Assembly (NCBI RefSeq): GCF_009937765.1
Contig: NZ_CP047089.1
Coordinates: 516,272 to 556,271 of the forward strand
DNA from: Bacillus pumilus
GTDB taxonomy: Bacteria > Bacillota > Bacilli > Bacillales > Bacillaceae
DNA: 40,000 bases
Direction of reading: 5' to 3'
The position numbers were made by a program, and so were the translations under genes. Below are positions 148-40,000 of the stretch, one piece after another (position 1 is the stretch's first letter; each line of letters begins with the position of its first letter). The notes beneath the pieces were generated by a model. That model had not been told where the DNA came from and searched no databases. It saw only the letters and a program-made list of their open reading frames with translations.

Positions 148-163
148 TTATTTCCCCCACCTC

Positions 164-565: not shown

Positions 566-668
566 ATGAGCGGCTCCTTTTTTCATTTCTATAAACCATA
601 CCCTTTTTATGTGAAGTCAATCACTGTTGATAAGTAGACGGCATTATCTCACCTAAAGTTTACCAAGT

Positions 669-696
669 AAAAAAACCTCGTCAAGAGTTACGAGGT
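669..696 (-). terminator. Rho-independent terminator after yugS (bidirectional shape)
   Basis: Stem ACCTCGT (675-681) pairs with ACGAGGT (689-695), with an A-run on one side and a T-run on the other. Confidence 0.7.
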
Positions 697-698
697 TT

Positions 699-1991: not shown

Positions 1992-2019
1992 AAAAACCCT
2001 TACCTAACAACGGTAAGGG
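1991..2019 (-). terminator. Hairpin plus T-run after yugP
   Basis: CCCTTACC (1997-2004) pairs with GGTAAGGG (2012-2019). On the minus strand it is followed by a T-run that overlaps the yugS TTG start. Confidence 0.5.
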
Positions 2020-2039
2020 CTCACCTCCTCTGGCATCAA

Positions 2040-2723: not shown

Positions 2724-2795
2724 CAGCTTCCTTTTTATTTTATATATTTATTTACAATTTTAATGACTTTTATGTAAGGTGTACAGAAAAAAGCA

Positions 2796-3026
2796 CTAGG
2801 TCTTTTTAAGTGGGATCACCGTGCCAATGAAAAAGAAGAATACACCTAAGCATGCTGTATAAAAGGTGACCGTTCCGTATAAATCTTGAAAAAAGTGCAG
2901 CCATGAAAAATCATTCATAAAATGATTCACCGCATTTAAGTCAAACACAAGTAAGATCACCGCTGATGATAAAAAATGAGCACCGATAAAAAGAAGTACG
3001 GTCTTTTGAACGAACGACATTCGCAT
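2796..3026 (-). CDS. Small hydrophobic membrane protein, function unknown
   Basis: 76 aa with two or three predicted TM helices. AAGGAGGG lies directly upstream, so the true start may be the second Met at 3020. No family recognised. Confidence 0.4.
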   Translation of the reverse strand: MRMSFVQKTVLLFIGAHFLSSAVILLVFDLNAVNHFMNDFSWLHFFQDLYGTVTFYTACLGVFFFFIGTVIPLKKT

Positions 3027-3137
3027 TCCCTCCTTCTTCTCTCTTATTTTAAGATATGGGAACTACATGACGAAGATGAAAAAATGTTCCTCAATCGGGC
3101 ATACTGACAATAGCAGTCTCCTGAAAGGAAGAGTCCG

Positions 3138-3932
3138 ATGAAATCAAACCGTATCTTTATCGCTTGGCTAAGGTGGCCACTTTATCTTCGAATTGTCGTC
3201 ATCATTTGTTTCTTACTTCTTTTTTTCGGACAATTAATCGTTTTTCTCGAACCGAAGCAGTATCATACAATCTTTGATGGAATCTGGTGGGCAGTCATTA
3301 CAGTATCTACAGTGGGCTATGGTGATTTTGTGCCGCAAACCATGCCAGGACAAGTCGCGGGTATGGCTCTAATTTTTATCGGCGCAAGCTTTGTCACAGC
3401 TTATTTTGCTACGCTTGCCGCCGCTGTGTTCAGCAAGCAGCACCATTATGTAGAAGGAAAGGTTGCTTTTAAGGGGAAGGGACATCTCATCATTATCGGC
3501 TGGAATGAGAAAACGAACAAACTGCTTCAGTCATTTCAAATGATTGACCCAGCTATGCCGATTGTGCTGATTGATGACTCCTTGAAGGAAGGACCTCTTC
3601 TAGAGAATGTTCATTTTATTAAAGGACACGGCACCGAGGATGGCACACTTCGCAAAGCCAATATTTCAGGTGCAGATGCACTGATGATTACCGCAGATCA
3701 GCACGAGAATGAAGTGACAGCTGATATGCAGAGTGTTTTAACATTACTTGCAGCAAAAGGATTAAATCCCTCGCTCTACTGTTTAATTGAAATCTTAACA
3801 GATCGATATGTGAAAAATGCCGAGCGTGCTGGCGCCAATCAAGTCATTCATACCTCTGATGCAGTCAATCATTTAATGGTCGAGCATTTTCTTTTAAAGG
3901 AGGATGACATAAAAAGTCGTAGAAAACGTTAG
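3138..3932 (+). CDS. yugO: Potassium channel with TrkA-N/RCK domain (YugO-like)
   Basis: 264 aa. It has the K+ selectivity filter TVSTVGYGD, followed by an RCK-type Rossmann region (HLIIIGWNEKT...). Confidence 0.85.
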   Translation: MKSNRIFIAWLRWPLYLRIVVIICFLLLFFGQLIVFLEPKQYHTIFDGIWWAVITVSTVGYGDFVPQTMPGQVAGMALIFIGASFVTAYFATLAAAVFSKQHHYVEGKVAFKGKGHLIIIGWNEKTNKLLQSFQMIDPAMPIVLIDDSLKEGPLLENVHFIKGHGTEDGTLRKANISGADALMITADQHENEVTADMQSVLTLLAAKGLNPSLYCLIEILTDRYVKNAERAGANQVIHTSDAVNHLMVEHFLLKEDDIKSRRKR

Positions 3933-4496: not shown

Positions 4497-6155
<1,659 letters not shown>

Positions 6156-6582: not shown

Positions 6583-7404
6583 TTATTTCAATGCTTTTTG
6601 AAGAGCTGCTTTAGTCTTTGGACCATAGATGCCGTCAGCAATAAGACCGTGCATGAGCTGGAACCGCTTGACCGCATTCACAGTTTTGGGTCCATAATAG
6701 CCGTCAATCCCGTTGTTTTTAGCTCCCTTTTCAGGATAGAAATAGACAGCAGCCAGCGCCTCCTGTAATGCTTTTACTCCCGCTCCCTTTGTCAAAGGCT
6801 TGGTCACTTTAATGATGCCAGATGGTAAGTTAAATGACTTTTTAGCAGGCTTGGAAGCTGTTTTTTTGGATGAAGTATTTTTGACAGGTGTCGCTTTCAC
6901 AGGCTTTGCTGTTGCCTTTTTACCTGTATGAGCGGTTGCAATACCCGCTTTGAAGCTGTCCCATCGATTAAGCAGCTTTCGAGGACAATTCTTGCCGCTC
7001 CATCTCTTATGAGGCACAACGTTTGCCAATGGAATGCCTTTCTCTGTCATAAGCTTCCGAATGAGCCATTGAGCATTTTCAACCGCTTTTTCAAAATTAC
7101 CGTCTGCGTTTTCACAAATCTCAATTCCAATTGACTTCATGTTTCCGGTTCCTCGTCCATCTCCTGCATGCCAGCCATTTTCGTTTAAAGGCAAATGCTG
7201 ATAAATGACTTTATCATCAACTGTAAAGTGCCAGCTTACACCTGTACTAGATCGTTTCACAAACGATGCGTGACTTGTTGCGTTTGCCCCTTTTGCTGTG
7301 TTAGCTGTGTTATGAACCGTAATATATAACGGCTTCATTCTATTTCCTGGTCTGTTGCGGTTACTCTTTGGAATAAAATCTTTAATGATTTTTACCACGT
7401 TCAT
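6583..7404 (-). CDS. Endolysin: N-acetylmuramoyl-L-alanine amidase (Amidase_2/PGRP fold) with a C-terminal PG_binding_1 repeat; CwlA/XlyA-like
   Basis: 273 aa with ITVHNTAN...WHFTVDD...AWHAGDG...IGIEICEN...HKRWSGKNCP amidase motifs. The C-terminal YFYPEKGAKNNGIDGYYGPKT...DGIYGPKTKAAL resembles the skin-element CwlA tail as I recall it. Confidence 0.9.
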   Translation of the reverse strand: MNVVKIIKDFIPKSNRNRPGNRMKPLYITVHNTANTAKGANATSHASFVKRSSTGVSWHFTVDDKVIYQHLPLNENGWHAGDGRGTGNMKSIGIEICENADGNFEKAVENAQWLIRKLMTEKGIPLANVVPHKRWSGKNCPRKLLNRWDSFKAGIATAHTGKKATAKPVKATPVKNTSSKKTASKPAKKSFNLPSGIIKVTKPLTKGAGVKALQEALAAVYFYPEKGAKNNGIDGYYGPKTVNAVKRFQLMHGLIADGIYGPKTKAALQKALK

Positions 7405-19474: not shown

Positions 19475-20100
19475 TTATCCCCCTTTCTTTGCTTCTTTTT
19501 CAAGAACCTCTAGTTTGTGCCTGATAAGTCCAAATAGGAATGCTTTGAATTGCCTTGGCGCTTCATAGACCTCTAAGAGTTCAGACGGGGAGTAATGAAG
19601 CTCATGCATGCAGTAATACAGATACACAGCCTCTTTATTCCCGTCCTTTATTAGTTTTTTGCTGCTTCTTCTAAATCTTCAATTTCATCTTCAAAACCGT
19701 TGACCTCAATGGCTTTGTTTAACCAGTTCGCATATTCACCGCCGACAGATAGGACACGCTTTGCCACTTCGACTGGATCTTGGGTGCCATATGCCTCACG
19801 CAGTTCTTTTGATTTGAAATCAGGGTAAATGGTTGATTCAACCGCAATACGTGCATAGAAGCGTTGAGAATCCAAGTCTTTCACACGTCCACGACCTTTA
19901 ACATTTTTGAAAGTCGTGTTTTCTTTCTCTAGTTCATCGATACGCTCTGTTGTGATCGCTTTGAATACGAATGGAATCACTTTACCTTCTTTATCAACGA
20001 AACGTTTTGAGATAATGGATTTGACCTCTTCCGCTTCTGTTGTTTGTCCTGGCATAAAGAATGAAAGATCATATACGTTGTTTGTTTGTTTTTCGCTCAT
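19475..20100 (-). CDS. Predicted -1 frameshift-extended tail assembly chaperone (G/GT-type fusion product)
   Basis: The zero frame ends ...EEAAKN* at 19651. Slipping at A AAA AAC opens a 59-codon frame (LIKDGNKEAVYLYYCMHELHYSPSELLEVYEAPRQFKAFLFGLIRHKLEVLEKEAKKGG*) that ends 3 nt before the tape-measure ATG. Confidence 0.6.
19651..20100 (-). CDS. Tail assembly chaperone (XkdN-like), zero-frame product
   Basis: The ORF is 19651..20238. I place the start at ATG 20100 (AAGGGAG upstream). The longer N-terminal extension would run through a terminator and the toxin promoter. The gene sits between tube and tape measure. Confidence 0.7.
   Translation of the reverse strand: MSEKQTNNVYDLSFFMPGQTTEAEEVKSIISKRFVDKEGKVIPFVFKAITTERIDELEKENTTFKNVKGRGRVKDLDSQRFYARIAVESTIYPDFKSKELREAYGTQDPVEVAKRVLSVGGEYANWLNKAIEVNGFEDEIEDLEEAAKN
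19654..19660 (-). other. Slippery heptamer A AAA AAC (programmed -1 ribosomal frameshift site)
   Basis: The plus strand reads gtttttt. On the minus strand it is in frame as GC-A AAA AAC TAA. Confidence 0.6.
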
Positions 20101-20134
20101 GTTTAAAAACTCCCTTTGATTTGTTTTTTTGAAT

Positions 20135-20167
20135 ACAAAAAAGCACATCCATTTTTTGAATGTGCTT
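20135..20167 (-). terminator. Rho-independent terminator (minus strand) between the TA module and the chaperone gene
   Basis: AAGCACAT (20141-20148) pairs with ATGTGCTT (20160-20167), followed on the minus strand by TTTTTTGTATTC. Confidence 0.55.
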
Positions 20168-20180
20168 TCCAATCTTTTCA

Positions 20181-20188
20181 TGTATAAT
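20181..20188 (+). promoter_or_regulatory. Candidate -10 element (TG-TATAAT) for the toxin mRNA
   Basis: A perfect TATAAT at 20183-20188 is preceded by TG. No good -35 lies at 17 bp: TTGAAT sits 21 bp upstream. Confidence 0.4.
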
Positions 20189-20228
20189 ATAAATCGTACA
20201 TATGAACGGCTTACAAGGGCGGTCTGGC

Positions 20229-20253
20229 TCATCCCCATATAGAAAGGGGGTGA
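20229..20253 (+). promoter_or_regulatory. 5'-UTR hairpin sequestering the toxin Shine-Dalgarno sequence
   Basis: UCAUCCCC (20229-20236) pairs with GGGGGUGA (20246-20253, the SD itself), including one U-G wobble. Confidence 0.5.
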
Positions 20254-20258
20254 TGCTT

Positions 20259-20366
20259 ATGTCAACTTATGAAGCGATTAGTTTAATGATTGCTTTTGGG
20301 ATTTATACCCTAAGCATTTTGACTTTAGTCGTGGGATTGTTGACACTATTTAAAAAGAAAAAATAG
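20259..20366 (+). CDS. Type I toxin: 35-aa holin-like membrane peptide (TxpA/BsrG 'Hol-Tox'-like)
   Basis: Not in the ORF track (<60 aa). Translation is MSTYEAISLMIAFGIYTLSILTLVVGLLTLFKKKK. The SD AAAGGGGGTGA is strong. The gene lies on the opposite strand to the whole prophage. The MSTYE... N-terminus plus one TM helix and a KKKK tail are as in TxpA-type toxins. Confidence 0.7.
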   Translation: MSTYEAISLMIAFGIYTLSILTLVVGLLTLFKKKK

Positions 20367-20405
20367 ACCTCCCTTGACCTCTACAAAAGTAAAAGGGTAA
20401 GTCTA
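20352..20405 (-). terminator. Rho-independent terminator for the antisense RNA
   Basis: On the minus strand UAGACUU-A-CCCUU pairs with AAGGGAGGUCUA (12 bp, one bulge; plus-strand 20364-20375 with 20393-20405), followed by UUUUUUCUUUUU. That U-run is the complement of the toxin's Lys codons. Confidence 0.55.
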
Positions 20406-20545
20406 TCCTTCAAAAGCATCTAGAGATAAGCCAGCCCTCTTAAAGGGCCTCATTGTACATTGCCAGGATGTTTGCGCATCCTGGCTTCTTTTTATTCTAC
20501 GCCAGTTGCAAGTTAGATATACCAACCGCAACAAATAATTATATA
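20355..20545 (-). ncRNA. Candidate antitoxin sRNA (RatA/SR4-like), about 190 nt, antisense to the toxin 3' end, 3'-UTR and terminator
   Basis: It is bounded by the TTGATT-17-TATACT promoter and the minus-strand terminator. It contains no ORF. Confidence 0.5.
20462..20495 (+). terminator. Rho-independent terminator of the toxin mRNA
   Basis: GCCAGGATG (20462-20470) pairs with CATCCTGGC (20477-20485), followed by TTCTTTTTATT. Confidence 0.75.
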
Positions 20546-20585: not shown

Positions 20586-21029
20586 TTAAAAACTATCCTT
20601 CAGCTTTTCAGGAAGATCAAAGTCCTCAAACGTGAAAGGAACCTCTTCTTCTAGCGCTTCTGAATCCACATCAAGCCCCGCGATCTTTGCAGAATCGAAG
20701 TTCACATCAAACAATGTGACACGCTCTGTGCCTCGGCCGGATGATTTGTCATCCAGTACAGCTTGAATCGTAAAGTACGGATCTTGTCCCTTCTTCACGT
20801 AATTTAACATCAACTGAACGAAACGTGATGTAACCTTATAGAAAGTCGCTGTGCCAGTACCATTTGCACCGGTTGTCTTGTGCCCTGTCATACGACGGCC
20901 CATAACGTTAACTTCTGATTTATTCTTCTCCACGTTTGCCTCAAACGTTTTGATGAACGCCATTTCCTCGCCATCGAGGAAAAGACGTCCTTCCTTACCT
21001 GAAATGGTATTCTGCGCTTTAAAAGCCAT
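20586..21029 (-). CDS. Tail tube protein (XkdM-like)
   Basis: 147 aa. MAFKAQNTISGKEGRLFLDGEEMAFIKTFEANVEKNKSEVNVMG...TGTATFYKVTSRF matches the XkdM-type core tail protein pattern. Confidence 0.85.
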   Translation of the reverse strand: MAFKAQNTISGKEGRLFLDGEEMAFIKTFEANVEKNKSEVNVMGRRMTGHKTTGANGTGTATFYKVTSRFVQLMLNYVKKGQDPYFTIQAVLDDKSSGRGTERVTLFDVNFDSAKIAGLDVDSEALEEEVPFTFEDFDLPEKLKDSF

Positions 21030-27683: not shown

Positions 27684-29209
27684 TTGCGGATCTCCTCTAG
27701 TTCATCCCTAAGGTCTTTTAAGAGATGGATCAAATCTTCCTGGGAACCCGCAGACTTCTGAAAAACCGTATCAAGCAAGCTAGTTGATGCCTTTGGCTTC
27801 GCTTCAATTGGTCGGTGGTATTCTTCCTCTGGCCATTCTTCTAATGTTTTTCCTAGAATACGGCCAGCCAGATCACGCAGGTCATTCGGTGAAACCGCTC
27901 CTGCCTGAATAAACGGTGTAAGAACCTTTGCAATTTCGAGCGGATCACGAAAGTCAGGACCATTTAATATTAGTCGCACATGCCAGAGATCGAGATCAGG
28001 AAGAAATAGCGTATTGAGCTTGCCAGTGATGATCATTCTTTCTGGCTGAAATACCTGCTCTTCAGTTGTCTTCCGAGCGGTGTCAGCTGTGGCCTTGTTA
28101 TAATCCTGTGATTCGCCTGTGTAGATCGGCGGCAGACGGAATGAAGAACGTATCTTGTTTCTCGTCTTCTCATCGTATTCCAAAAAGAGTGCATCCTCCT
28201 GAAGAATCTCGGCCAGTGATTTTATTTCAACTTTCACAGGTGCAGGGTCTTCATCATTGCTTACTTCGTCCTTTTTCTTTTTAGGAATCCCTTCGACTTC
28301 AAGCAAAAGGAATTTATGTGCATTGTCTGAACCCTCGATGCCATTCATGTACTCTTGCAGCTGTTCATATGATGCTTCAGATAGCATTCCATTCTCTACA
28401 GTAATTGCAGCCGGCACATGACGACCTTGTTTAAAGTACAGATAGTTCAGCTCTTCAGCTTTACGCGCACCGTACATATTGACGATGTTACCAATCCAAC
28501 GAGGAACACCATATGTACCGCTGCCAATCTTAAAGTGGATGACTTCGCTTGCTACAAGTTCAGGGGGAGTTTTTTCGCTATATTCTCCCGTAGCAGCGTT
28601 CATTGTTCTTGGATCTCCGTACTCTTTGAAGAATACTTTTTTAGTGTTTATCTGCTGAACATACTTTCTGAACCGCTTCATTCTTTTGAGGGATTTGACT
28701 TGACCATGATCTGTATATTTAAAGTCGATCTCGACAGGATCGCCTATCTTACATATTCGCATGTGTTGAGCATCTAAATATTCAATCCCTGCTGGTTGCC
28801 CTGTGCCATTACGTAACACTTCAAGAAAGCCATTCCCTGTCCGCTCCCGATCTTCTATCACATATCCTAGAACCACTTCGGCTGCTTCATCATAGTTCAT
28901 GTATCGCACAAGCTCCTCAAGCCTCGTCCATTCTTTTTCAGCAGCGCCTTTCTTTCCTTCTGGTGCATCCTCAGCGTTGAAATCAAAGACATATTCAATT
29001 CCTAAGCCGAAACCTAGAATGTTGGTTTTATACGCATCGATGCATTGCTGAAGAATGGTAGAATACTCAGCTATTTGTTTAAGCTCTGTGATATTGTACG
29101 GCGGCTCGATAACGTCATCAGCCTCATAATTAAAGCCATCGTCATGAATTTGTTTGGTAGTTTGAGAGATGTCTGCTTTAAACACAGTTGCTTTCACATG
29201 TTTTGTCAT
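27680..29209 (-). CDS. Portal protein (PBSX XkdE-type)
   Basis: 509 aa. It has ATGA-type overlaps with TerL and the gp7-like gene, and size and order match the portal. Confidence 0.8.
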
Positions 29210-30519
29210 AGCCTTCTCATCGACCTCCTTTCTCTGTTTGGACGGACACGCTCTTTAGGCTGCTCTTTCAGATCGGTGACTTCATAGTCATCTAACGCAT
29301 ACCAGATGGCTGAAAAAGTATGTGGGTCAATCTGAAACTCGTCCTCTATGATATTGCCACGCTTGTCTGTCTTGTACGTGAGCGGCTGAAGCTCATAGAT
29401 CGTGTTTTTGCATGAGTCGGAACAAATGATCTTCTTAAACCGCTTGATCTTCTTGGTATACTGCAAGCGTGATCCCTGAAACTTATGAGCCGGGACCATG
29501 TTGTATCCCATCTTGCGGAAATATGCGATTGTCTTTTGTTCGTTGTCTGCCTTTATCAGCTCTTTTGTTTCAATGAACTCTTTCAAGTCCTCAACTGTGA
29601 CATCATCAGTTTTACCGCGATCGTAATACTCCCAATAGATATATAGATACTTCTTCTCGTGATCGACAGCCAACCTAACCACAGCGTTATATGAATCAAC
29701 GAAACCAAAGTCCATGCCCGCTCTAAGCAAAGGACGATTGATATTTGAGATGGCCAGCATCACATCTTCATGCGGCTGCACCTCGAATTGTGGCAGAACA
29801 CGAATTCCGTTTATGCCAAAATGACCTTTTCGGGCAATTCGATAAAGGTCGGGATCGTATTCCTTTAGTTCGTCCAGCTGCTTGATATAGCTCACAGGTA
29901 GAAATAGGTTATCTTCTGCCGTCGAGTGGTGATAGTACGTATCGTTGATAGCGATCGTTCGCTCTTTGTATAACCTTTCATCGTCCAGGATAAATCGGTT
30001 ATTTTGATCGTCCTTAAAGAAATGTCTGTACGTCCAATTATCCTGACCGACAGGGTTCGTTGATAGGATCATGTGTAAATCCATAGTCGGGTGACGCAAA
30101 CGACCAAGCAGCTCCTTGAATCCCTCATACTTCACTTCTGAACATTCTTCAATCCATATGATCGAGATGTTGTTGATCGACTTCAGCTTGGCGGGCTTGT
30201 CCAACCCTTTGAAAATGATCCGGCTCCCGTTATGGAATTTAAGCATGAGCGGTGATGTCCGGCATTGAATGACATGATCGAGGCCAAGATCATTCACGAT
30301 CTCTTCAAATAAAGAAAACGTGGAATCTCTGTGCGTATCATAGACTTCACGAATAACCAGGGCTGTTCTCTTTTCATCTAGCAACTTTAAGATGAGCTTC
30401 AGGGCAATATGATAGCTTTTAGATGAACCGTAACCACCCACTAGGAACTGAAACTTCAGTTCCCAGTCAAAGAGAAAATCTTCAAAGTGTGGATTGACTT
30501 CCTTCTCCATCAGTTGCAT
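29206..30519 (-). CDS. Terminase large subunit (PBSX XtmB-type)
   Basis: 437 aa with a Walker A-like VGGYGSSKS and a Walker B-like IIWIEE. Confidence 0.85.
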
Positions 30520-31403
30520 CAGCCATCACCTTTTTTCTTTGCTCTCTTTATAGTAATTTGAACCGAATCATCGACAGGTCGAGCGGTGATTCGCTCCAGC
30601 TCTGCCTCTCTCGTTCGGTTTGCAAGATCAAGGCCACGCAGCCTCAATTCATGCTCTGACATAGTTTTCATAATGTCGTGTTTCTGCCTAATGGCTTTAA
30701 GACGCTTGTCTGTTACTCGCGTCAATGCTTCCTCTATTTCAAGGATGCGGTCAATCACAGGTAATTGAGTTTCTTCCACCTCAGTGACTACAAGACGCTC
30801 ATTGATAATCGGAACGTATTTGACAACACCATTCTCACTTGTGGATGGTGCAACGTCTTTTGTCTTCCTAAGTTGCTGAAGAACACGTCGCTGATTATCG
30901 GTTAAACCATTTTCATACTTCATGATCCTGTGCATCATGCGCCGCTCTCGAATACTAAGCTCTCGTATGGTCAATTCAATTTGATAGAGCGGATCGGTCT
31001 CGATCTGCTCAAAGAGTTCCTTTTCTGTGTCGTCCATGTAATCGAACATAATTGATTCAAATTCACCTGTTCGCACAGAATTTCTGTTTCCTTTTGGAGC
31101 ACCACCAGTATTCCCTTTAGCGTTTTGGTTACCAGGTGGAGCTTTACCGCCTTTATTCCCTTTGGCATTTTTACTGCCTTTTGGAGCACCAGGGCGTTTA
31201 GTAACGTTACCATTGGTTTTCTCTTTTGGTTTAGTAACGTTACCATTCAATTTCTCATCCCAAAAGTCTTGGTTCTTCCATTTGCGGATAAGCGTTTGAG
31301 AACACTCTAATTCTTCAGCAATGTCTTTCAGTAAGCGGGTTCCATTGCTTTTCTTCCACAACTGGAATGCCTGATCTCTTTTGGGATTTCGCGGTCTAGC
31401 CAT
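30519..31403 (-). CDS. Terminase small subunit (XtmA/YqaS-type) with an N-terminal HTH and Gly/Asn/Lys-rich repeats
   Basis: 294 aa with [19 protein letters not shown] as the HTH. The repeats are [54 protein letters not shown]. The gene overlaps TerL by 1 nt (TGATG). Confidence 0.7.
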
Positions 31404-31809: not shown

Positions 31810-31837
31810 GAGGGTGTTGTCAGCACCCTCTTTTTTT
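31810..31837 (+). terminator. Hairpin GAGGGTG-N7-CACCCTC with a T-run only in the plus-strand orientation, overlapping the MTase stop codon
   Basis: Stems lie at 31810-31816 and 31824-31830, with T7 at 31831-31837. In the minus-strand sense there is no U-run after the stem. Confidence 0.45.
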
Positions 31838-32864
31838 ATTTAAACCATTGCAAATGTATCTGTTCTGCGATCCGTTTCATCATCACTGGCGGTACGCTCA
31901 TCCCGCAGACATACTGCACTGAAGCGTCCATAAAGTCATAATCCAGTGGGAAAGATTGCATCAGGATAATATCCCTTTCAGAGATATAATAAGGCTCATC
32001 ATATCTAATAAAGACAGAACCGCTTGCTAGTGTTGGCGGAACTAAACTGTTTTTAACTAATACTGTATTAAAATTCCGCTCTTTACCTTCTGTTCGTTTA
32101 GTGATGTCTCCAATGTTGCCATCGGACGGACGCCGCTTAATCCATCTTTTATATGTTTTACTTGATTCATTTAGCCTTGATCCATGTCCACTTCTAAACT
32201 CTCCATATGTGACCGGTGGTTCATTGAAAGCCAATTTCAACGGTGGCAGATTCAGGTCCTTTCTACGGCCAATAAAAAAGACCCGCTCTCTTCTTTGCGG
32301 GACTCCCATTGTGGCCGCGTTCAGCAAGAACAGCTGAACTTCATACCCGATTTCTTTTGCTCGCTCAATGACAAGTTTCACATACCCCTTTGCTTTTCCT
32401 TTGATCATGCCGCTTACGTTCTCGGCTACAAAGGTTTTGGGCTGCAAACGTTCTACAGCATCCAGGTAATGAAAGAACAGATCATCTAGTTTTTGGACAG
32501 CTTGTCCCTCTCTGAACGCTTTTTCTTTTCCCCAATCCTCTTCTCTTTTTCCGGCCGTTGAAAACACGCTGCATGGCGGCGATCCATCGAACACATCAAG
32601 ATTCTTTAGTTCTTCAGGAAGATCGGAGAGTGGGATCTGGTTAAACTCTCGAATGTCCATGAAATAAGGGTATTTCGGCTTGTGATTCTTTTTATAGATT
32701 TTCATCATTTGCGGATCGATCTCACAGTTTCCCAGCAATTCAAACCCTGCTAATTTGTAGCCCATTGAGGAGCCACCACCGCACGAGAATGTACTGAACA
32801 CTTTCAACCCATTGGAAGGGATGTTTTTAAGATCACTCAATTTCCATCTATAGTTCATGTTCAT
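31836..32864 (-). CDS. DNA (cytosine-5)-methyltransferase
   Basis: 342 aa with motif I FSTFSCGGGSSMG, motif IV GSPPCSVFS, motif VI FVAENV, motif VIII GVPQRRERVFFIG and motif X GMSVPP. Confidence 0.9.
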   Translation of the reverse strand: MNMNYRWKLSDLKNIPSNGLKVFSTFSCGGGSSMGYKLAGFELLGNCEIDPQMMKIYKKNHKPKYPYFMDIREFNQIPLSDLPEELKNLDVFDGSPPCSVFSTAGKREEDWGKEKAFREGQAVQKLDDLFFHYLDAVERLQPKTFVAENVSGMIKGKAKGYVKLVIERAKEIGYEVQLFLLNAATMGVPQRRERVFFIGRRKDLNLPPLKLAFNEPPVTYGEFRSGHGSRLNESSKTYKRWIKRRPSDGNIGDITKRTEGKERNFNTVLVKNSLVPPTLASGSVFIRYDEPYYISERDIILMQSFPLDYDFMDASVQYVCGMSVPPVMMKRIAEQIHLQWFK

Positions 32865-32872
32865 GCTGCCAC

Positions 32873-33391
32873 CTACTCATTAAAAGAGAATCCGCACTTA
32901 GGACATGTATGCTCAAATTGGTCATCTCCATATTCATCAAGATCGATCTCATGACTCTCAGATACTGCTCCACCTTGACCTGTATGTTCCAAATCATTCA
33001 GAACATCCTCTAATTCTGCGTCACTGAATCCAGTTAGGCTTAGATCATATCCAGATCCCTCTAAATCCTTCAGCAGTTCAGTAAGTTTATACTCATCCCA
33101 TTCACCGTCTATCTTATTCAATGCGATATTCAGTGCTTTTTCATCTTGTTCATTAAGCGATACAACTGATACAGGAATATCATTTGGATTTTCCTCCATC
33201 AATACTTTGAAACGTTGGTGACCTCCTACAAGGTGACCTGTCCGTTCATTCCATACTAAGGGATCAATGTATCCAAATTTTTTTATTGAGTTTTTCAGAG
33301 AGTCGTATTCTGGATCTCCTGGCTGCAGATCGATGCGGGGGTTATATGGTGATGGGTTAATTTTATGTACGGGAATTGTTTTGATATTCAT
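32873..33391 (-). CDS. ParB N-terminal (ParB/Srx-like nuclease) domain protein with a C-terminal zinc-ribbon motif
   Basis: 172 aa with IPVHKINPSPYNPR...LVGGHQRFKVL (ParB-like box) and a C-terminal CPKCGFSF. Confidence 0.75.
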   Translation of the reverse strand: MNIKTIPVHKINPSPYNPRIDLQPGDPEYDSLKNSIKKFGYIDPLVWNERTGHLVGGHQRFKVLMEENPNDIPVSVVSLNEQDEKALNIALNKIDGEWDEYKLTELLKDLEGSGYDLSLTGFSDAELEDVLNDLEHTGQGGAVSESHEIDLDEYGDDQFEHTCPKCGFSFNE

Positions 33392-33928: not shown

Positions 33929-34219
33929 TTATCTATTCACACGACGACAACAAGGATTTTTCAAGTCACTTCCACAATCGTACTCTTCAACACAGCACTC
34001 ATTCTCATACGATTCTGTCACTGGATAAAAATTCTCAATTTTTTTGATGTGTTTATTCACATTTGTAATATGAGTTGGATGAATTCGTCTGATTGTATTC
34101 TCACTAGTTGTTTTTTTGACGATATGACGTGTTGGTGAAACAATTGTTTCGTCCTTACAATTACAATGCTTTCTCCTACGAGAACCAAAGAAAAAATCGT
34201 CCATTCTGTTGCGGCTCAT
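33929..34219 (-). CDS. CotD-family (inner spore coat protein D-like) small Cys-rich protein
   Basis: 96 aa. The core IHPTHITNVNKHI...NFYP matches the CotD signature (V/I)HPTH..NVN...H..P. The C-terminus is Cys-rich: ECCVEEYDCGSDLKNPCCRRVNR. Confidence 0.6.
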   Translation of the reverse strand: MSRNRMDDFFFGSRRRKHCNCKDETIVSPTRHIVKKTTSENTIRRIHPTHITNVNKHIKKIENFYPVTESYENECCVEEYDCGSDLKNPCCRRVNR

Positions 34220-34253
34220 ATCAACACCCTTTCAACAGTTTTGACTTTCATCA

Positions 34254-34280
34254 CAGCATATGAAAAAATAGTCAGATTGT
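34254..34280 (-). promoter_or_regulatory. Sigma-K-like promoter candidate (AC-16 nt-CATATGCTG) upstream of the CotD-like gene
   Basis: The minus strand reads ggACaatctgactattttttCATAtgcTG, against the consensus AC-16/17-CATAnnnTA (one mismatch). It lies about 35 nt upstream of the ATG. Confidence 0.3.
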
Positions 34281-34327
34281 CCTCCACAAGTATCATTAAT
34301 AATGGAAAATTCCACTTATTAACCATG

Positions 34328-34507
34328 TTATTTTCTTCGGACCCGGCCGCCTTGTCGTTGATACGTTTCGCGTCTCGTTCCCATGATTTCTTCCCAATCT
34401 CGTGTCGTTATTGGATCAGCATCGTTCTCCTTCTTTCTATTAGAACCAGGAGCAATGCTTTTAAATTGCTTTAATGTCTCTTTAGAAACAGAATCCCTGA
34501 TCTTCAT
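34328..34507 (-). CDS. Hypothetical basic 59-aa protein (cargo)
   Basis: The ORF is 34328..34537. I place the start at ATG 34507, 8 nt after AAGGAG. Translation is MKIRDSVSKETLKQFKSIAPGSNRKKENDADPITTRDWEEIMGTRRETYQRQGGRVRRK. No family recognised. Confidence 0.5.
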   Translation of the reverse strand: MKIRDSVSKETLKQFKSIAPGSNRKKENDADPITTRDWEEIMGTRRETYQRQGGRVRRK

Positions 34508-34762
34508 TTCACTCGCTCCTTGCCGAATAAGCACCACCTTACGCTATTCGCTTAAATAGATTTTGATTTTGTAATGATGACTACACTCCGAGAGGATGCC
34601 AAGTACAGTCAATCATCAATTAAAATGAAAAACTGTCCTCGATACGGCCGCCGCAGACCAGCTGCTATCCAGGCTCAGAATGTCCCTCTCGTATGGCCAC
34701 ATTCCTCAACACCTTTGTTCCGTATCCAGATACGCCATTGATAAGGGAAAGACGCGTCTCCC

Positions 34763-34818
34763 AATAAAAAAGCGGACACCAATCAAGGCACTTAAAGTGC
34801 TCAATGATCAGCGTCCGC
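34763..34818 (-). terminator. Long branched hairpin plus U6 (minus strand) inside the ORF-poor spacer
   Basis: GCGGACAC (34772-34779) pairs with GCGTCCGC (34811-34818) as the outer stem, with a GCACT/AGTGC apical stem. A6 at 34766-34771 gives a U-run in the minus-strand sense. Confidence 0.5.
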
Positions 34819-34887
34819 AGGTTCTTCCTTCTGGACAAAATATTCACGTTCATTTGCTTGTCTCTATCATACGATGATCCGCTCAGG

Positions 34888-34950
34888 AAAAAAGGTCCCC
34901 TTTTTATCCCCCTTTTTGTCGGCTTTTCCTCGGTTTTTTGTCGGCTTTTT
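34888..34950. repeat. Phased A/T-tracts (predicted intrinsically curved DNA), including a 2x direct repeat TGTCGGCTTTTYCTCGG
   Basis: T-tracts start at 34901, 34913, 34924, 34934 and 34946 (spacing 10-12 bp), plus A6 at 34888-34893. Confidence 0.7.
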
Positions 34951-34963
34951 CTCGGCAATGCAA

Positions 34964-34993
34964 ATAAAAAAAGTGCCCATAAACATGGACACT
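34964..34993 (-). terminator. Rho-independent terminator after the immunity gene
   Basis: AGTGCCCAT (34972-34980) pairs with ATGGACACT (34985-34993), with one G-U pair, followed on the minus strand by U7. Confidence 0.75.
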
Positions 34994-34999
34994 TTAATT

Positions 35000-35488
35000 C
35001 TATAATTCCCAAAACGCTTCGCCTTCAGAATCAATATACTTCCGAAGGAAATTTTCAAAATCTACATCAAGGAGTCTATATTCTAAACCATCTTCAAATA
35101 GATAAAGGTTGGGATTTTCCTTATTTAGTATCAAGTAGCACCCTTCAAAAAGAGCGGCAATAGCTGTTCCATCAACCTGATCAAAAAAATCATTAGACAA
35201 CTCGGATTCGATTTCTTCTAAACTGAAAACGTGTAATCCTCCACCCACCTTTTGCCCAAAAACTATGTCTTCAAATATTCTTGCGCCATTATGTAGACAT
35301 AAAAACTCTTTGAGATCGTTAGGTAATGCATGATGTTTCTTTTCAAAACATTTTAGATTTTCTTTATCAGCTGGGGCATTGAAGGTACAGCACTTTTCAT
35401 AGACTTCGCCGTCTACCGAGTATTTGATGATGTTTTTATCATCTAATTGATTTTCAAGCTCTTCTAATATCTGCACGATCCTACTCAA
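35000..35488 (-). CDS. SMI1/KNR4 (SUKH-1) family immunity-type protein
   Basis: 162 aa, starting 12 nt after the toxin stop. It has the SUKH pattern ...HHALPNDLKEFLCLHNGARIFE... and an acidic C-terminal half. Confidence 0.7.
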   Translation of the reverse strand: MSRIVQILEELENQLDDKNIIKYSVDGEVYEKCCTFNAPADKENLKCFEKKHHALPNDLKEFLCLHNGARIFEDIVFGQKVGGGLHVFSLEEIESELSNDFFDQVDGTAIAALFEGCYLILNKENPNLYLFEDGLEYRLLDVDFENFLRKYIDSEGEAFWEL

Positions 35489-35499
35489 TCTTTCACCTT

Positions 35500-36468
35500 C
35501 TATCTATATCCTCTCCACCAAGGGGAAACCTCTTGTTGATGCAACGTTCTTGTGAGTACATATAAATTACCCATTTTATTATCTCCACCATATTCTAAAG
35601 GAATAACATGGTGTATGTCTGAGCCAGACCAATCCCATTTAGGATCGCCGTATTTACCAATATACCACCTGATATATTTATTACGGATATCCTTATCTCT
35701 CTTAACTCTATCTTCAGGCTTATACCATTTCATATTTGCTTTTGTTGGTGCTGGCAATGATTTACCACTATGACTATTATGAATTTGCGGATATTCATAA
35801 GCATTTTTATTAACTAGATATGTTTCTGTTGTACTTTGTTTAGTACCTGGGGCACTTCCGACCCAACCGGCTGTTAGTAAATCGGATTTGTACACAAATT
35901 TCGTTTTCACCATTTTATACGTTTTAGATGCTGTAGCACCAACTTTTATCTGAGAACCCGTAAATTCTTTTGTATAAGTTGAAATTGCGTTATATTTCCC
36001 CGCATAATCATCTCCTACAAATAGAGTGCTACCTACAATTACAATAACCGGCTTCGCTTTGCCAATAATACTACGAATTGTAGAACTATGAGTAATTGAC
36101 TTTTTCGATTGATCTAACTTAAACAATGTATCAATGACGATTGTATTAGCGACTTTGGTATTTGCGTCTGGAGTCTTTTTAGTACTCTTATTCTTGGTGG
36201 ATGGTTGAAGCACTACGGTGTCACCCTGTGGCATATTTCTTTGAGGTGGATCATGAGGTTGGTTTCTAAATTGTTGTCTTGCCTGGTCAATTATATCAGA
36301 TTTACTCTGTATTTCTTTTGCATGTCCATTTTCGTCAACTTCTAGTACATGTGTCTCTTTGTATGTTGTGATACCATCCTTTGATTGACTAGCTTCAGCA
36401 TCACTTGTCCATAACCATGCTGCCAACAGAAAAACCATAAAGAAAATCGAATAAGCAAATTTTTTCAT
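35500..36468 (-). CDS. Secreted protein with a C-terminal colicin-E9/E7-type H-N-H DNase motif (polymorphic-toxin-like)
   Basis: 322 aa. The Sec signal is MKKFAYSIFFMVFLLAAWLWTSDAEA|S. The C-terminus DIHHVIPLEYGGDNKMGNLYVLTRTLHQQ aligns with colicin E9 [32 protein letters not shown]: HH-xx-P, GG, N at +6, T at +5 and H at +9. I recognise no domain in the central region. Confidence 0.7.
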   Translation of the reverse strand: MKKFAYSIFFMVFLLAAWLWTSDAEASQSKDGITTYKETHVLEVDENGHAKEIQSKSDIIDQARQQFRNQPHDPPQRNMPQGDTVVLQPSTKNKSTKKTPDANTKVANTIVIDTLFKLDQSKKSITHSSTIRSIIGKAKPVIVIVGSTLFVGDDYAGKYNAISTYTKEFTGSQIKVGATASKTYKMVKTKFVYKSDLLTAGWVGSAPGTKQSTTETYLVNKNAYEYPQIHNSHSGKSLPAPTKANMKWYKPEDRVKRDKDIRNKYIRWYIGKYGDPKWDWSGSDIHHVIPLEYGGDNKMGNLYVLTRTLHQQEVSPWWRGYR

Positions 36469-36557
36469 ACCGATACTCCTTTTCCAAATTATTTACAACA
36501 AACCCAATATACAATATATGTATCTATTTATAAATGATCCTAAAATACCATATGTAC

Positions 36558-36590
36558 AAAAAACAGCACTCATATGATTCCGAGTGCTGT
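36558..36590 (-). terminator. Rho-independent terminator overlapping the ArpU stop codon
   Basis: ACAGCACTC (36563-36571) pairs with GAGTGCTGT (36582-36590), followed on the minus strand by TTTTTTG. Confidence 0.7.
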
Positions 36591-36953
36591 TGAAAGATTA
36601 AACGTCGCTTGCTTCTTCAATTTGTAATACCGGTCTTTCTTCAGACCCAGTTCTTCACACACCTCCAAATCCTTCACCACACGCGGTGTCAGGTATTTCA
36701 TCCGGATGATGTCTTGCTCAATTTCATCCAGGCTGTTTTCTAGCGCTCTTTCTATTTGCCGGACCTTCAGTTCATTTAAAACTTCCTGGTTCCTGAGAGA
36801 AGGAAAAAGCCCTGTTGCACCGTTTGCCTCCTGTTCCTTTCTGTTTTCTTCAAGAACCTTCAGTGCCCTATAGACCTTCAGCTCCTTGATCAGAGCATTC
36901 CGAACGTGTTTCTCATCGATCTCTGGCAGTAAGGATAATTGTTCAGCTCCCAT
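36570..36953 (-). CDS. ArpU-family phage late transcriptional regulator (sigma region-4-like C-terminus)
   Basis: 127 aa. The call rests on its position between the early and packaging genes and on the C-terminal HTH-like IIRMKYLTPRVVKDLEVCEELGLKKDRYYKLKKQATFNLSTALG. Confidence 0.6.
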   Translation of the reverse strand: MGAEQLSLLPEIDEKHVRNALIKELKVYRALKVLEENRKEQEANGATGLFPSLRNQEVLNELKVRQIERALENSLDEIEQDIIRMKYLTPRVVKDLEVCEELGLKKDRYYKLKKQATFNLSTALGII

Positions 36954-37418: not shown

Positions 37419-37763
37419 CTACAATAGATCAGGATATAGATCAGGATTTTGATAGATATTTCCGATGACCTCAAAAGTCTTCCCACAAAACAGATAATCA
37501 CGAAGTGGATGAGGTCGTTGGTCTCCTAAGTAACCAATTACGCAAAAACATCCATCATCAAAGACAACTTGTGCTGAGTTCTTTTGGTCATCAACTACGA
37601 TATCCCCCTCATAAATCTCAACGCCGTTTTTATCCTTCAATCCGGTGTACTGCATATAATCACCATGTTTATCAGCGAAAATTTCATTGATATCACCATC
37701 AAATGTGGGTTCCATCATCCCAATTCTACTTCCATACCAACCTCTAAACTTGATTTCTCTCAT
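37419..37763 (-). CDS. YopX-family phage protein
   Basis: The ORF is 37419..37814. I place the start at ATG 37763, after AGGAGGAGACAGA. MREIKFRGW...YTGLKDKNGVEIYEGDIV is the YopX signature. Confidence 0.8.
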   Translation of the reverse strand: MREIKFRGWYGSRIGMMEPTFDGDINEIFADKHGDYMQYTGLKDKNGVEIYEGDIVVDDQKNSAQVVFDDGCFCVIGYLGDQRPHPLRDYLFCGKTFEVIGNIYQNPDLYPDLL

Positions 37764-37791
37764 TCTGTCTCCTCCTAAGCCGCTAGGCTGT

Positions 37792-38778
37792 TTATAGGTG
37801 ATGCAACAGTTCAATTTGCACGCCGTTTAAGCGTTTGTTTGCAATCTTTATATATTCAGGATTCAATTCAATTCCGATAAAATTTCTACTATGCTTTATT
37901 GCCGCTATACCTGTTGTTCCTGATCCCATGAATGGATCCAATACAATGCCATCTACGGGGCAGCCAGCTAATACACACGGCTCTATCAGCTCCACTGGAT
38001 ATGTTGCAAAGTGAGCGTCTTTGGTTGGCTTGGTTGCAACGGTCCAGACTGAACGCTTATTCCGCTTATTTCTGATAGCTCTAAAAGACAGATCACCATA
38101 CTTTCCTTTGAATGAGCCGCGGGGCTTGTCCTCTCTCCGCCCTAGTTGTTCCAATCCGAATGCGCCTCGTGATCCTCTTGGTGGATCCGGAAACAGTTTG
38201 TAAGCAGCTTCTTCTTTAATTGCTTCATGATCGTAATAATACTTTTGTGATTTTGAGAGAAGAAAAATATATTCGTGTGAGGATGTCGGTCTATCCCTCA
38301 CACTCTCCGGCATGGCATTTGGTTTGTTCCAAACAATGTCTTTTCTCAGGTACCAGCCATCTTCTTGGAGAGCGAAAGCAACGCGCCACGGCAAGCCTAT
38401 TAAATCTTTTGATTTTAATCCGGTTACTTTGTTTGAAAGATTTATAACACCGCTTCTTTGACCAACAGACTGTTTATGTTCAATACCTGGATGCGCTTGG
38501 CCGTTCGCAATTCTTCCACGACCGCTTCCAGCATAAGCGTCTCCTAGATTCAGCCAGACAGTGCCATCATCCTTTAAAACTCTCTTAATCTCTCTGAATA
38601 AAGAAACGATTTTTTGAATGTATTCTTGAACGGTTTCTTCTAAACCGATTTGCTCAGTCATTCCGTAATCTCTTAACCCCCAATAAGGCGGGCTAGTGAT
38701 CACGGTTTGAATTGTATCCGGCGGCAGCGACTGAACAACCTTTATGCAATCGCCTTGAATGATTTGATTCAGGTCCAT
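37792..38778 (-). CDS. DNA methyltransferase, N4/N6 (beta-class, SPPY) family
   Basis: 328 aa with motif IV TSPPYWGLRDYG near the N-terminus and the AdoMet motif VLDPFMGSGTTGIAA near the C-terminus. Confidence 0.85.
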   Translation of the reverse strand: MDLNQIIQGDCIKVVQSLPPDTIQTVITSPPYWGLRDYGMTEQIGLEETVQEYIQKIVSLFREIKRVLKDDGTVWLNLGDAYAGSGRGRIANGQAHPGIEHKQSVGQRSGVINLSNKVTGLKSKDLIGLPWRVAFALQEDGWYLRKDIVWNKPNAMPESVRDRPTSSHEYIFLLSKSQKYYYDHEAIKEEAAYKLFPDPPRGSRGAFGLEQLGRREDKPRGSFKGKYGDLSFRAIRNKRNKRSVWTVATKPTKDAHFATYPVELIEPCVLAGCPVDGIVLDPFMGSGTTGIAAIKHSRNFIGIELNPEYIKIANKRLNGVQIELLHHL

Positions 38779-38798
38779 GCGGCACCTCCTTCCAGCTG

Positions 38799-40000
38799 TT
38801 AGTTTGCTTTGCTATAATATTTGTTCATGTGTACAGGTACACATAGTTCAGGTAAATTCGCTCTCACCAACTGCTCCGCAAATTGCGGTGGAACACTATT
38901 CCCCACCCTGCGTATTTGGTCCGATTTATTACCGATGTTAAATGTATATCCAGGCGGGAATCCCTGCCCTGCAAATAGTTCGTTCGGTTGCAACATACGT
39001 AATCCGATGTCAGCAATTCTCTGACCATTTGTGCAAACAGTTGTTAATGCAAATCGGTCTTTGGTTGTAATGGTATGCAATGGCTCATCTAATCGTTGGC
39101 CTACTCCTTGGCCGTAATACTTAGTCAAATAGGCAACGGTGACTAGTCCGAATCTATTGCCGCCAGCTGTGATTGTGTGTAATGGACGATCAAGCGAAAG
39201 ACCTCTTACATCCTTTTCTGATTGCTCTGTGTAATAGCTAATCAAGAAAGCGGCTTTGCTCTTATCCGGCACCATTACAGGACTTGGATTATTTACAATG
39301 AATTTCTCAATACCTCTCTCAATTCTTTTCAACGTATTTTCGACTAACGGCCGTTTCCTGCTGAATATACTAGGGACCCCTATGGACCAATCTATAATTT
39401 CGTAAGAAGATCGCCACGGCTTGAGCTTTCCCGTTTGAACAAGAAGGCTTTTAGGATCTGCATGTGTTGGCTTCGGCCATACGATTTCTTTTCCATCACA
39501 CCTAGCAACCATGAAAAACCTCTTTCGTATGGTTGGCGCTCCATAGTCACAAGCCGTTAACTCTCTGAACTGCACTTCATATCCAAGTGATTCCAGCGTT
39601 TTGACGAATGATTGAAATGTCTGTCCCTTTTGTTCCTTGATCGGTTTACCTTCTTTAGAGATAGGCCCCCAATCTTTGAATTCCTCAACGTTCTCGAGCA
39701 TGATGACGCGTGGCTTAACTGCTATCGCCCATCTGACAGCAATCCACGCAAGCCCTCTGATACCCTGTTTTACAGGCTTGCCGCCTTTTGCCTTTGAATG
39801 GTGTGTACAGTCAGGAGAAAACCATGCTAGACCGACTTTCCGCCCCTTAACAGCTTCTTTCGGATCAACATTCCACACAGATTCACAATAATGCTCCGTG
39901 TCAGGATGATTTACCTCATGCATTGCAATGGCAGCAGGATCATGATTGATGGCTATATCAACTGATAACCCTGTCGCAAGCTCGATTCCTGTACTCGCTC
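38799..40000 (-). CDS. DNA (cytosine-5)-methyltransferase; the N-terminus lies beyond the right edge
   Basis: The frame stays open upstream of the ORF-track Met: ...ASTGIELATGLSVDIAINHDPAAIAMHEVNHP is the tail of motif I (GGGGASTG). FSPDCTHHSKAKGG (motif IV variant), MLENVEEF (VI) and GNSVPP (X) are also present. Confidence 0.85.
   Translation of the reverse strand, partial: ASTGIELATGLSVDIAINHDPAAIAMHEVNHPDTEHYCESVWNVDPKEAVKGRKVGLAWFSPDCTHHSKAKGGKPVKQGIRGLAWIAVRWAIAVKPRVIMLENVEEFKDWGPISKEGKPIKEQKGQTFQSFVKTLESLGYEVQFRELTACDYGAPTIRKRFFMVARCDGKEIVWPKPTHADPKSLLVQTGKLKPWRSSYEIIDWSIGVPSIFSRKRPLVENTLKRIERGIEKFIVNNPSPVMVPDKSKAAFLISYYTEQSEKDVRGLSLDRPLHTITAGGNRFGLVTVAYLTKYYGQGVGQRLDEPLHTITTKDRFALTTVCTNGQRIADIGLRMLQPNELFAGQGFPPGYTFNIGNKSDQIRRVGNSVPPQFAEQLVRANLPELCVPVHMNKYYSKAN

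Follow-up and report, generated by a model that had tools for sequence, protein, structure and literature searches.

The 40,000-nucleotide (nt) stretch of DNA analysed here (hereafter the window) comes from a bacterium of the Bacillus pumilus group and carries a defective PBSX/PBP180-like prophage. Within that prophage lies a cassette of two genes, encoding a 322-amino-acid (aa) protein with an HNH nuclease domain at its C-terminus and a 162-aa protein of the SMI1/KNR4 (SUKH) family. Sequence comparisons and structure predictions support assigning the pair to the toxin/immunity type, that is, a putatively exported HNH nuclease with a SUKH partner. We consider it probable, at roughly two chances in three, that the locus is a DNase and immunity cassette of the polymorphic-toxin kind, whose exported precursor would kill neighbouring cells while the lysogen is protected. 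The toxin domain occupies the extreme C-terminus and is shared among different scaffolds, the candidate immunity gene is adjacent, and orphan immunity genes and degraded toxins occur in relatives, as is typical of polymorphic toxins.

Under this interpretation the precursor would be exported via Sec and its leader cut after AEA. The mature protein would start with a short N-region and a flexible linker, continue with an immunoglobulin (Ig)-like sandwich and end in a C-terminal HNH domain of ~108 residues in which the HH...N...H set is intact. The toxin would reach the cytoplasm of nearby Bacillus cells that are sensitive to it and degrade their DNA, with the sandwich and N-region as the most likely means of binding a receptor or gaining entry. 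The SUKH protein, transcribed together with the toxin and staying in the cytoplasm, would bind and block the nuclease, keeping the lysogen safe both from toxin not yet exported and from the toxin of its siblings. The net effect would be a lysogenic conversion in which carriers of the prophage kill or inhibit otherwise similar cells in which the matching immunity gene is missing.

An earlier note on this DNA had described the two open reading frames (ORFs), a Sec-type leader, a SUKH partner and a separate transcription unit on a PBSX-like prophage, and these descriptions held up. The ORFs have the claimed lengths, and the gap between them is 11 nt by coordinates (the toxin stop codon ends at 35500 and the SUKH ORF starts at 35488). 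A Shine-Dalgarno-like AAGGAG precedes the toxin ATG (36476-36481), and a similar AAGGTGA precedes the TTG start of the SUKH gene. The PBSX-like background is supported by an XkdN-like tail chaperone (19651-20238) and by a comparison with the defective B. pumilus phage PBP180, to which 40% of the structural region aligns at ~77% nt identity. The coordinates of the cassette and its parts are collected in the table below.

To characterise the C-terminal domain we used an alignment and profile of the C-terminal ~108 residues from 36 diverse family members. The catalytic motif of HNH nucleases is an HH (or DH) dyad on the first strand together with a structural Asn and, on the helix, a metal-binding His or Asn. 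N220, H287, G295 and N301 are invariant in this alignment, and H286, H310 (each at least 90%), Y226-P227 and W317 are nearly so; with H286-H287, N301 and H310 all present in its core, the window copy looks catalytically intact. Pfam family PF01844 was matched by 35 of the 36 members, the best at an E-value of 4.1e-7. Searched against the PDB, the family profile recovered Cas8f-HNH (3.4e-6), IscB (9e-4) and the C-terminal domain of Serratia Rhs2 (8cm0; 1.6e-3), with marginal matches to pyocin AP41 (E=0.01) and colicin E7 (E=0.08). In the AlphaFold2 (AF2) model, residues 251-310 reached a predicted local distance difference test (pLDDT) score of 72-85, and Foldseek matched the model to Cas8f-HNH with a probability of 1.0 and a root-mean-square deviation of ~3 Å across ~75 residues. 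The predicted core also resembles phage HNH endonucleases in BFVD. By profile and predicted fold, then, the C-terminus is an HNH (His-Me finger, beta-beta-alpha-metal) domain, and it is presumably a DNase.

To judge from these comparisons, the domain is generic HNH and not specifically colicin-type. The earlier note had aligned it residue for residue with the DNases of colicins E9 and E7. The same H-H...N...H layout is indeed present, but the likeness was overstated: beyond the marginal colicin E7 match, the Col-Pyo_DNase family (PF21431) drew matches from only 2 of the 36 members, at best with E=0.088, and none from the window protein. The subfamily is instead marked by a ~70-residue N-terminal extension (N220, YP226-227, P241) and a PWW..Y tail; neither Pfam nor NCBIfam has a model for it, and no description of it was found in the papers searched. 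In 131 of 131 relatives examined, 0-14 aa follow the domain before the protein ends. It terminates proteins with RHS repeats, PT-HINT, DUF6443, S8-fn3, CBM96 and DNRLRE domains as well as short signal-peptide proteins, and in one distant relative (P0046) an S8 peptidase and fn3 are fused to it. An RVKR at residues 254-257 was considered as a dibasic processing site in the style of S8-PTS toxins and rejected, the motif not being conserved in the family (consensus RVxW).

Upstream of this domain, the protein is predicted to comprise a leader, a small N-region, a linker and a beta-sandwich. The N-terminus, MKKFAYSIFFMVFLLAAWLWTSDAEA followed by SQ, was read by eye as having the n/h/c layout of a signal peptide, with a basic n-region, an AxA site and no lipobox. 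MKK or MFKK followed by a hydrophobic stretch opens all 6 of 6 full-length homologues and the homologue in SPbetaL8, and a hydropathy heuristic scored 69 of 148 relatives as starting with a signal-like segment; many of the others are fragments. The full-length AF2 model gave pLDDT values of 60-83 at residues 31-72 and below 50 at residues 73-106, and this linker is predicted to be disordered.

The earlier note had recognised nothing in the centre of the protein. As regards curated families this stands, as the whole 322-aa protein had no match in Pfam, NCBIfam, PHROG or PADLOC; AF2, however, predicts a fold. Modelled alone, residues 104-218 formed an all-beta sandwich with no helix (pLDDT 85.7; predicted template-modelling (TM) score 0.76), and the prediction of an Ig/FnIII-like sandwich for the central domain is a confident one. 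Foldseek searches with it returned generic sandwiches alone from the PDB (E at least 1.2e-3, TM 0.4-0.6), among them the factor XIII barrel, the LacZ Ig-like domain, ApaG and the ARRDC3 N-lobe, and only generic beta-sandwiches from BFVD. The domain occurs in 55 of 148 relatives, invariably N-terminal to the HNH domain, and is also appended to large surface proteins (with CBM96 in P0022 and DNRLRE in P0037). Homologues of the full protein carry just one name, 'HNH endonuclease signature motif containing protein'. A profile search of a library of 1.8 billion proteins matched 597 clusters at 50% identity; an exact-sequence look-up of the 322-aa protein returned one 1.7-kb contig and nothing else.

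The family assignment of the second gene is straightforward. The 162-aa ORF matched PF09346 (SMI1_KNR4) at E=1.7e-10, with 42 bits against a cutoff of 25.4 and over model positions 1-124 of 125, and it matched phrog_36924 at E=2.6e-81. No signal peptide is visible in its sequence, and the protein should therefore be cytoplasmic. The SUKH partners of the toxin homologues form one subfamily, apart from YokJ and YokK. The closest named relative is YokH of phage SPbeta (43.5-44% identity), which is annotated as SMI1/KNR4 family and for which a full-text literature search found no functional study. In SPbeta c2 no toxin gene or remnant lies near yokH (L019 3968-4525), and by its sequence YokH is an orphan member of the cassette's immunity subfamily. 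From the role of the family and the conservation of the neighbourhood, we infer that the SUKH protein binds and neutralises the adjacent nuclease. It also gave a weak match to the PADLOC defence-candidate model PDC-M40A (E=1.9e-4), which probably reflects just common SUKH ancestry.

Conservation of the pair was assessed in loci with fetchable genomic context; homologues from the protein library carry none. In every intact relative locus examined, a SUKH gene adjoins the toxin gene. It lies directly 3' of the toxin in the window, L002-L006, L009-L018, L021 and L022, and is convergent with it in SPbetaL8, where a 333-aa toxin homologue sits beside a YokI-like LXG-HNH toxin. Besides sister prophages of 91-93% identity, a homologous SUKH gene stands beside the toxin gene in 7 divergent loci, and the pairing persists at 33-44% toxin identity in unrelated genomic contexts. 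These include an island flanked by transposases in Caldifermentibacillus, a chromosomal site in Peribacillus, and 340-408-kb megaplasmids of B. thuringiensis: pGR340 (L022 2959-4567, with a toxin 35% identical to that of the window), NZ_CP014853.1 and CP020005.1. Toxin and SUKH divergence correlated at r=0.86 over 28 locus pairs, which are not independent, so that this co-variation of toxin and immunity is descriptive only.

In 4 of 6 species-representative genome loci (L011-L014, from Peribacillus, Cytobacillus and Shouchella), a decayed toxin gene lies beside an intact SUKH ORF of 175-183 aa. The toxin gene is frameshifted in L011 and L013, is reduced to its last ~110 codons in L014, and has lost its 5' half in L012, where it lies beside a reverse-transcriptase-like ORF (an intron-RT interruption). 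Other toxin fragments are found in B. safensis (P0027, 155 aa) and Peribacillus simplex (P0023, 175 aa; P0169, 137 aa), all annotated as hypothetical, and in P. butanolivorans (P0167, 189 aa), where the fragment is named 'HNH endonuclease'. Retention of immunity in cells without their own toxin, in L011-L014 as for YokH in SPbeta, argues for a toxin that comes to cells from outside.

Compared with phi105-like phages, the cassette is an insertion of low GC content. In phi105, rho14, yong1 and their relatives, a conserved non-coding element of 180 nt begins no more than ~100 nt after the terminator of arpU. The window aligns with phi105 (L008) on both sides of the cassette, 34582-34762 with L008 2352-2535 and 36559-36590 with L008 2635-2666, so that ~1.8 kb in the window stands where phi105 has ~100 nt. 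The GC content is 35-36% within the insert and 40-45% in the flanks, and terminator-like hairpins lie on both sides, the one closing the arpU unit being kept in phi105. Terminator-like sites numbered 7 in the region, compared with 3.4 +/- 1.8 in shuffles. Given its absence from the phi105 junction, its flanking terminators and its deviating GC content, with a candidate promoter that is a weak consensus match, the cassette is by these comparisons an autonomous insert, or moron, lying between arpU and the late genes of its PBSX/PBP180-like prophage. Cassettes nearly identical to it are present in B. xiamenensis, in Bacillus sp. 28A-2 and in four IMG/VR prophage contigs, each time directly 3' of arpU, and the nearest homologue of the toxin protein is from B. 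altitudinis (96% identical).

The same site has received other genes. In the sister prophage L015 (IMGVR_UViG_2721755807_000002), genes for a 531-aa LXG-PT-TG toxin and a 153-aa Imm30 protein follow straight after the cassette terminator as an insertion between window positions 34936 and 34944 (L015 3823-5901), forming a two-toxin island with the cassette. The phi105-like phage vB_BteM-A9Y carries at this site, 3' of arpU, an unrelated ORF of 201 aa (L020 2037-2642) with no Pfam match. Because the A9Y ORF and the LXG/Imm30 pair are both inserted there, the position downstream of arpU is a cargo hotspot. The 180-nt element itself (34582-34762) is 82% identical to its counterparts in phi105-like phages and marks the distal edge of the insertion. 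We rejected it as a structured RNA, since neither strand gave a folding signal (z = -1.1 and +0.3), and as a small ORF, since no reading frame is conserved; that it could be a late-operon promoter or an ArpU target region is speculation.

Several observations weigh against a polymorphic-toxin cassette. Judged alone, the window protein falls under the Pfam gathering score (PF01844 E=0.05-0.1, 13-14 bits against 21.4). Its last 67 residues alone also gave sub-threshold HNH matches, and in a phmmer search of the single protein against the PDB all HNH matches were sub-threshold. The HNH end proposed in the earlier note is thus real and significant at the level of the family, but not in the single sequence. 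The domain swapping that it had suggested looking for did not appear: profile searches with the full-length protein and with the central domain led to HNH-ended proteins or fragments and to no scaffold with another toxin domain, although the search with the central domain alone, whose sensitivity is limited by its word index, found fragments and pseudogene pieces alone. Polymorphism is therefore visible from the side of the C-terminal domain alone. The candidate promoter of the cassette is no better than chance, with 18 promoter-like sites in the region against 16.8 in shuffles, and toxin decay in draft genomes could partly be assembly or sequencing error. Finally, we know of no import pathway by which a Sec-released nuclease of ~30 kDa would enter Gram-positive cells.

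One alternative makes the protein a housekeeping or scavenging enzyme that is secreted to degrade extracellular DNA (eDNA), serving biofilm remodelling or nutrient release without entering other cells, with the SUKH protein as a cytoplasmic safety inhibitor like barstar for barnase. A Sec leader on a non-specific-looking HNH domain fits an extracellular role, SPbeta also has an exported nuclease by annotation (YokF), and the family and structure scans of the toxin turned up no known translocation domain or delivery machinery. However, the same HNH domain also ends Rhs and PT-HINT toxins, which intoxicate other cells, and in L015 and SPbetaL8 the cassette is found alongside LXG toxin pairs. An inhibitor that served safety alone would moreover be purposeless where the SUKH gene is intact and the toxin decayed or absent. 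Because the domain is common to Rhs/PT-HINT toxins and immunity outlasts the toxin, a weapon is favoured over an eDNA nuclease, which we regard as unlikely. Of the two roles offered in the earlier note, the eDNA nuclease is accordingly the less favoured, while the phage-carried weapon or kin-discrimination locus is retained, though not as one specific to phages, the pair being found on megaplasmids and islands too.

A service to the prophage itself was also weighed, by addiction or stabilisation, abortive infection or superinfection exclusion, in which the HNH protein attacks phage DNA and the SUKH protein restrains it. The cassette does sit in a prophage beside the late regulator, at the kind of site where phages often carry defence morons, and its SUKH protein has the weak PDC-M40A match. 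Yet the conserved, cleavable-looking leader would place the nuclease outside the cytoplasm, away from phage DNA; the pair is equally conserved off phages, on the megaplasmid and in chromosomal islands; and the toxin has no PADLOC match. We consider such a service distinctly improbable, and we rejected an intracellular toxin-antitoxin or addiction module on the ground that the Sec leader would take the nuclease outside. It is scarcely credible that the gene is an ordinary phage HNH endonuclease, of the homing or terminase-associated packaging type, with a SUKH neighbour by chance. Phi105-like phages do have such an enzyme near cos and the terminase (phi105 ORF19), and the resemblance of the predicted core to BFVD phage endonucleases would suit one, but HNH proteins of packaging or homing do not come with a signal peptide, an Ig-like domain and an N-terminal extension of 215 residues. 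The gene is also missing at this junction in phi105-like genomes, its SUKH partner is kept across non-phage loci and its domain is common to Rhs toxins; architecture and neighbourhood together effectively refute this explanation.

Beyond the preferred interpretation as a polymorphic-toxin cassette, a bolder version can be put forward as a tentative possibility. The protein might work unaided as a diffusible DNase bacteriocin for Gram-positives, similar to colicins, whose conserved sandwich and N-region bind a receptor and bring it across the Bacillus envelope by an undescribed route. As a portable weapon of kin discrimination, the module might spread between strains by way of prophages, megaplasmids and islands.

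Features of the cassette and its immediate setting (positions in the window; AF2, AlphaFold2)
Feature	Position	Strand	Basis or remark
Insertion relative to phi105-like phages	34763-36558		Alignment of both flanks to phi105 (L008)
Toxin gene, 322 aa, ATG start	35500-36468	(-)	ORF list of the 40,000-nt window
Predicted Sec signal peptide, residues 1-26 (MKK, 17-residue hydrophobic core, AEA followed by S)	36391-36468	(-)	Read from sequence
N-region (strands 33-44, helix 56-68) and P/Q/N/K/T-rich linker, residues 27-106	36151-36390	(-)	AF2 full-length model
Predicted central Ig/FnIII-like beta-sandwich, seven strands, residues ~107-214	35827-36150	(-)	AF2 of isolated domain
Putative C-terminal toxin domain, residues ~215-322	35503-35826	(-)	Family profile and AF2 model
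HNH core, residues 283-314	35527-35622
Putative immunity gene (SUKH, SMI1/KNR4), 162 aa, TTG start	35000-35488	(-)	ORF list and PF09346
Terminator-like hairpin closing the arpU unit, 5' of the cassette	36562-36591	(-)	11-bp stem, then T-run
Terminator-like hairpin closing the cassette, right after the SUKH gene	34970-34995	(-)	11-bp stem, then T-run
Candidate sigma-A-type promoter for the cassette, TTTATA/17-nt spacer/TATATT	36506-36534	(-)	Weak, 9/12 matches
ArpU-family late-gene regulator, neighbour 5' of the cassette (context only)	36570-36953	(-)	TIGR01637 E=2.5e-21; phrog_248 E=4.9e-26
Terminase small and large subunits	30519-31403 and 29206-30519		Five other ORFs separate terminase from the pair

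The neighbours of the cassette in the window include ArpU, a 69-aa ORF and a CotD-like ORF, among others, and the terminase subunits lie ~3.6 kb away. The CotD-like ORF (96 aa, 33929-34219, minus strand) matches the spore coat protein CotD (PF11122, 5e-20); since the segment 33881-34330 is shared with L010 and missing from the sister prophages L015, L016 and L018, it represents a second small insert. An Rfam scan of the whole window and of 34200-36700 gave no match within or beside the cassette. Elsewhere, BsrG (RF01412), a type I toxin-antitoxin RNA, was matched at full length in the tail module (20197-20484, plus strand; 111.6 bits, E=8e-26); the XkdN-like gene on the opposite strand shares its 5' end with the first ~40 nt of this match, the remainder of which falls in the gap ahead of the next ORF (20586-21029). 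Three DNA methyltransferase-like genes are spanned by the regions 31836-33391 and 37792-39923 (minus strand), namely 31836-32864 (phrog_116), a C-5 cytosine methylase at 38799-39923, and 37792-38778, which was taken as a methylase from reading its sequence alone. The prophage further encodes a ParB-N protein (32873-33391), a YopX protein (37419-37814) and an amidase/lysin (6583-7404). Just beyond the lysin gene, at the apparent prophage end, a 549-aa ORF (4497-6146, minus strand) has collagen triple-helix repeats and a weak CBM_5_12 match, and window positions 1-3932 hold host genes for a CNNM/CorC transporter, a Zn peptidase and a K+ channel.

If our interpretation as a toxin and immunity cassette is true, the prophage gives its B. 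pumilus-group host a secreted DNase weapon together with the antidote, and so alters who can live beside whom. The analysis also defines a sizeable unnamed family, with ~600 clusters at 50% identity that have this HNH toxin domain, and gives YokH a testable role as an orphan immunity protein. A question of real interest is how a Sec-released nuclease would cross the Gram-positive envelope, for which the Ig-like domain offers a handle. The new elements are modest. They are an HNH toxin subfamily without a name, marked by its N-terminal extension and PWW..Y tail; the fixed pairing of this subfamily with an Ig-like domain; a SUKH subfamily dedicated to it, YokH included; and the occurrence of an HNH-SUKH cassette as a moron in PBSX-like prophages. 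Exported nuclease toxins with SUKH immunity on mobile elements are a category already well described, and the advance would be incremental. The suggestion in the earlier note that this was the window's best candidate for an undescribed two-gene system went too far, kindred types having been catalogued in 2011-2012 (PMC3113570, PMC3482391) and 2022 (PMC9424270).

The closest framework is that of the polymorphic toxins. Sec-exported members with lineage-specific domains after the signal peptide were catalogued by Zhang, Iyer and Aravind (2011, PMC3113570) and Zhang et al. (2012, PMC3482391), and a linkage of SUKH with HNH in 'various Bacillus species' was noted in 2011 (PMC3113570). The cassette shares with these systems a predicted signal peptide, a lineage-specific domain, a nuclease at the extreme C-terminus and a SUKH gene directly 3', as well as the use of its toxin domain on Rhs/PT-HINT scaffolds and the orphan immunity genes and decayed toxins. 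It differs in that its scaffold was not found with alternative toxin domains and its HNH subfamily is without a Pfam or NCBIfam model of its own. The S8-PTS of Gram-positives, including Bacillus, similarly combine a signal peptide, a beta-rich putative receptor-binding domain and a C-terminal toxin (Li, Tan and Zhang 2022, PMC9424270). Their toxins include one of the HNH/XHH type, the immunity gene adjoins, and the immunity families listed are mostly not SUKH (PMC9424270). The layout predicted for the cassette, from signal peptide through beta-rich domain to toxin with adjacent immunity, is thus alike. In contrast, BetaH is acidic and has a C-terminal helix enclosed by a sheet of seven strands, with a dibasic cleavage site (PMC9424270); the cassette's sandwich, helix-free in the AF2 model, is set apart from it by this published description, and no S8 peptidase gene was found beside the window pair in the ORF list or by Pfam and PHROG.

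Among toxins characterised by experiment, the C-terminal domain of Serratia marcescens Rhs2 is the closest by family profile. This DNase toxin belonging to a type VI secretion system (T6SS), with its dedicated immunity protein RhsI2, has an atypical HNH that recruits EF-Tu (PDB 8cm0; bioRxiv 10.1101/2025.10.28.685041). The two share an HH dyad on a beta-hairpin followed by a P-L-E-x-GG-x-N motif, the similarity being confined to ~55 residues; unlike the window toxin, Rhs2 is delivered by a T6SS on an Rhs cage in a Gram-negative. Colicins E7 and E9 and pyocins S and AP41 are alike in their C-terminal HNH killing domain, H-H...N...H order and 3' immunity gene, and also in concept, as diffusible toxins with a receptor-binding domain. 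However, the profile similarity is marginal, SUKH stands in place of the four-helix Im immunity protein, the window toxin is without T and R domains, and a Sec leader rather than a lysis protein would serve export, with a Gram-positive envelope as the target.

The cassette can also be compared with other weapons carried by phages. In B. subtilis, LXG toxins of the type VII secretion system (T7SS) are paired with immunity proteins on prophages, YokI-YokJ on SPbeta and YqcG-YqcF on skin (Kobayashi 2021, as cited in PMC9424270). Like these, the cassette is a prophage-borne putative nuclease toxin with SUKH-type immunity in Bacillus. It differs in that its immunity protein clusters with YokH and not with YokJ or YokK, and in that a putative Sec leader takes the place of T7SS targeting, as the earlier note had proposed: the toxin has no match to PF04740, whereas neighbouring toxins in L001 (1e-58) and L015 (3e-41) do. 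MuF toxins, which are polymorphic-type toxins with immunity genes on temperate phages of Firmicutes, have a head-morphogenesis domain fused to them and presumably move along with the phage particle (Jamet et al. 2017, PMC5576092); the window toxin, in contrast, has no such domain but a putative Sec leader, and its gene is not part of the structural module. Given the LXG pairs and the MuF toxins, carriage of such weapons by phages is already known.

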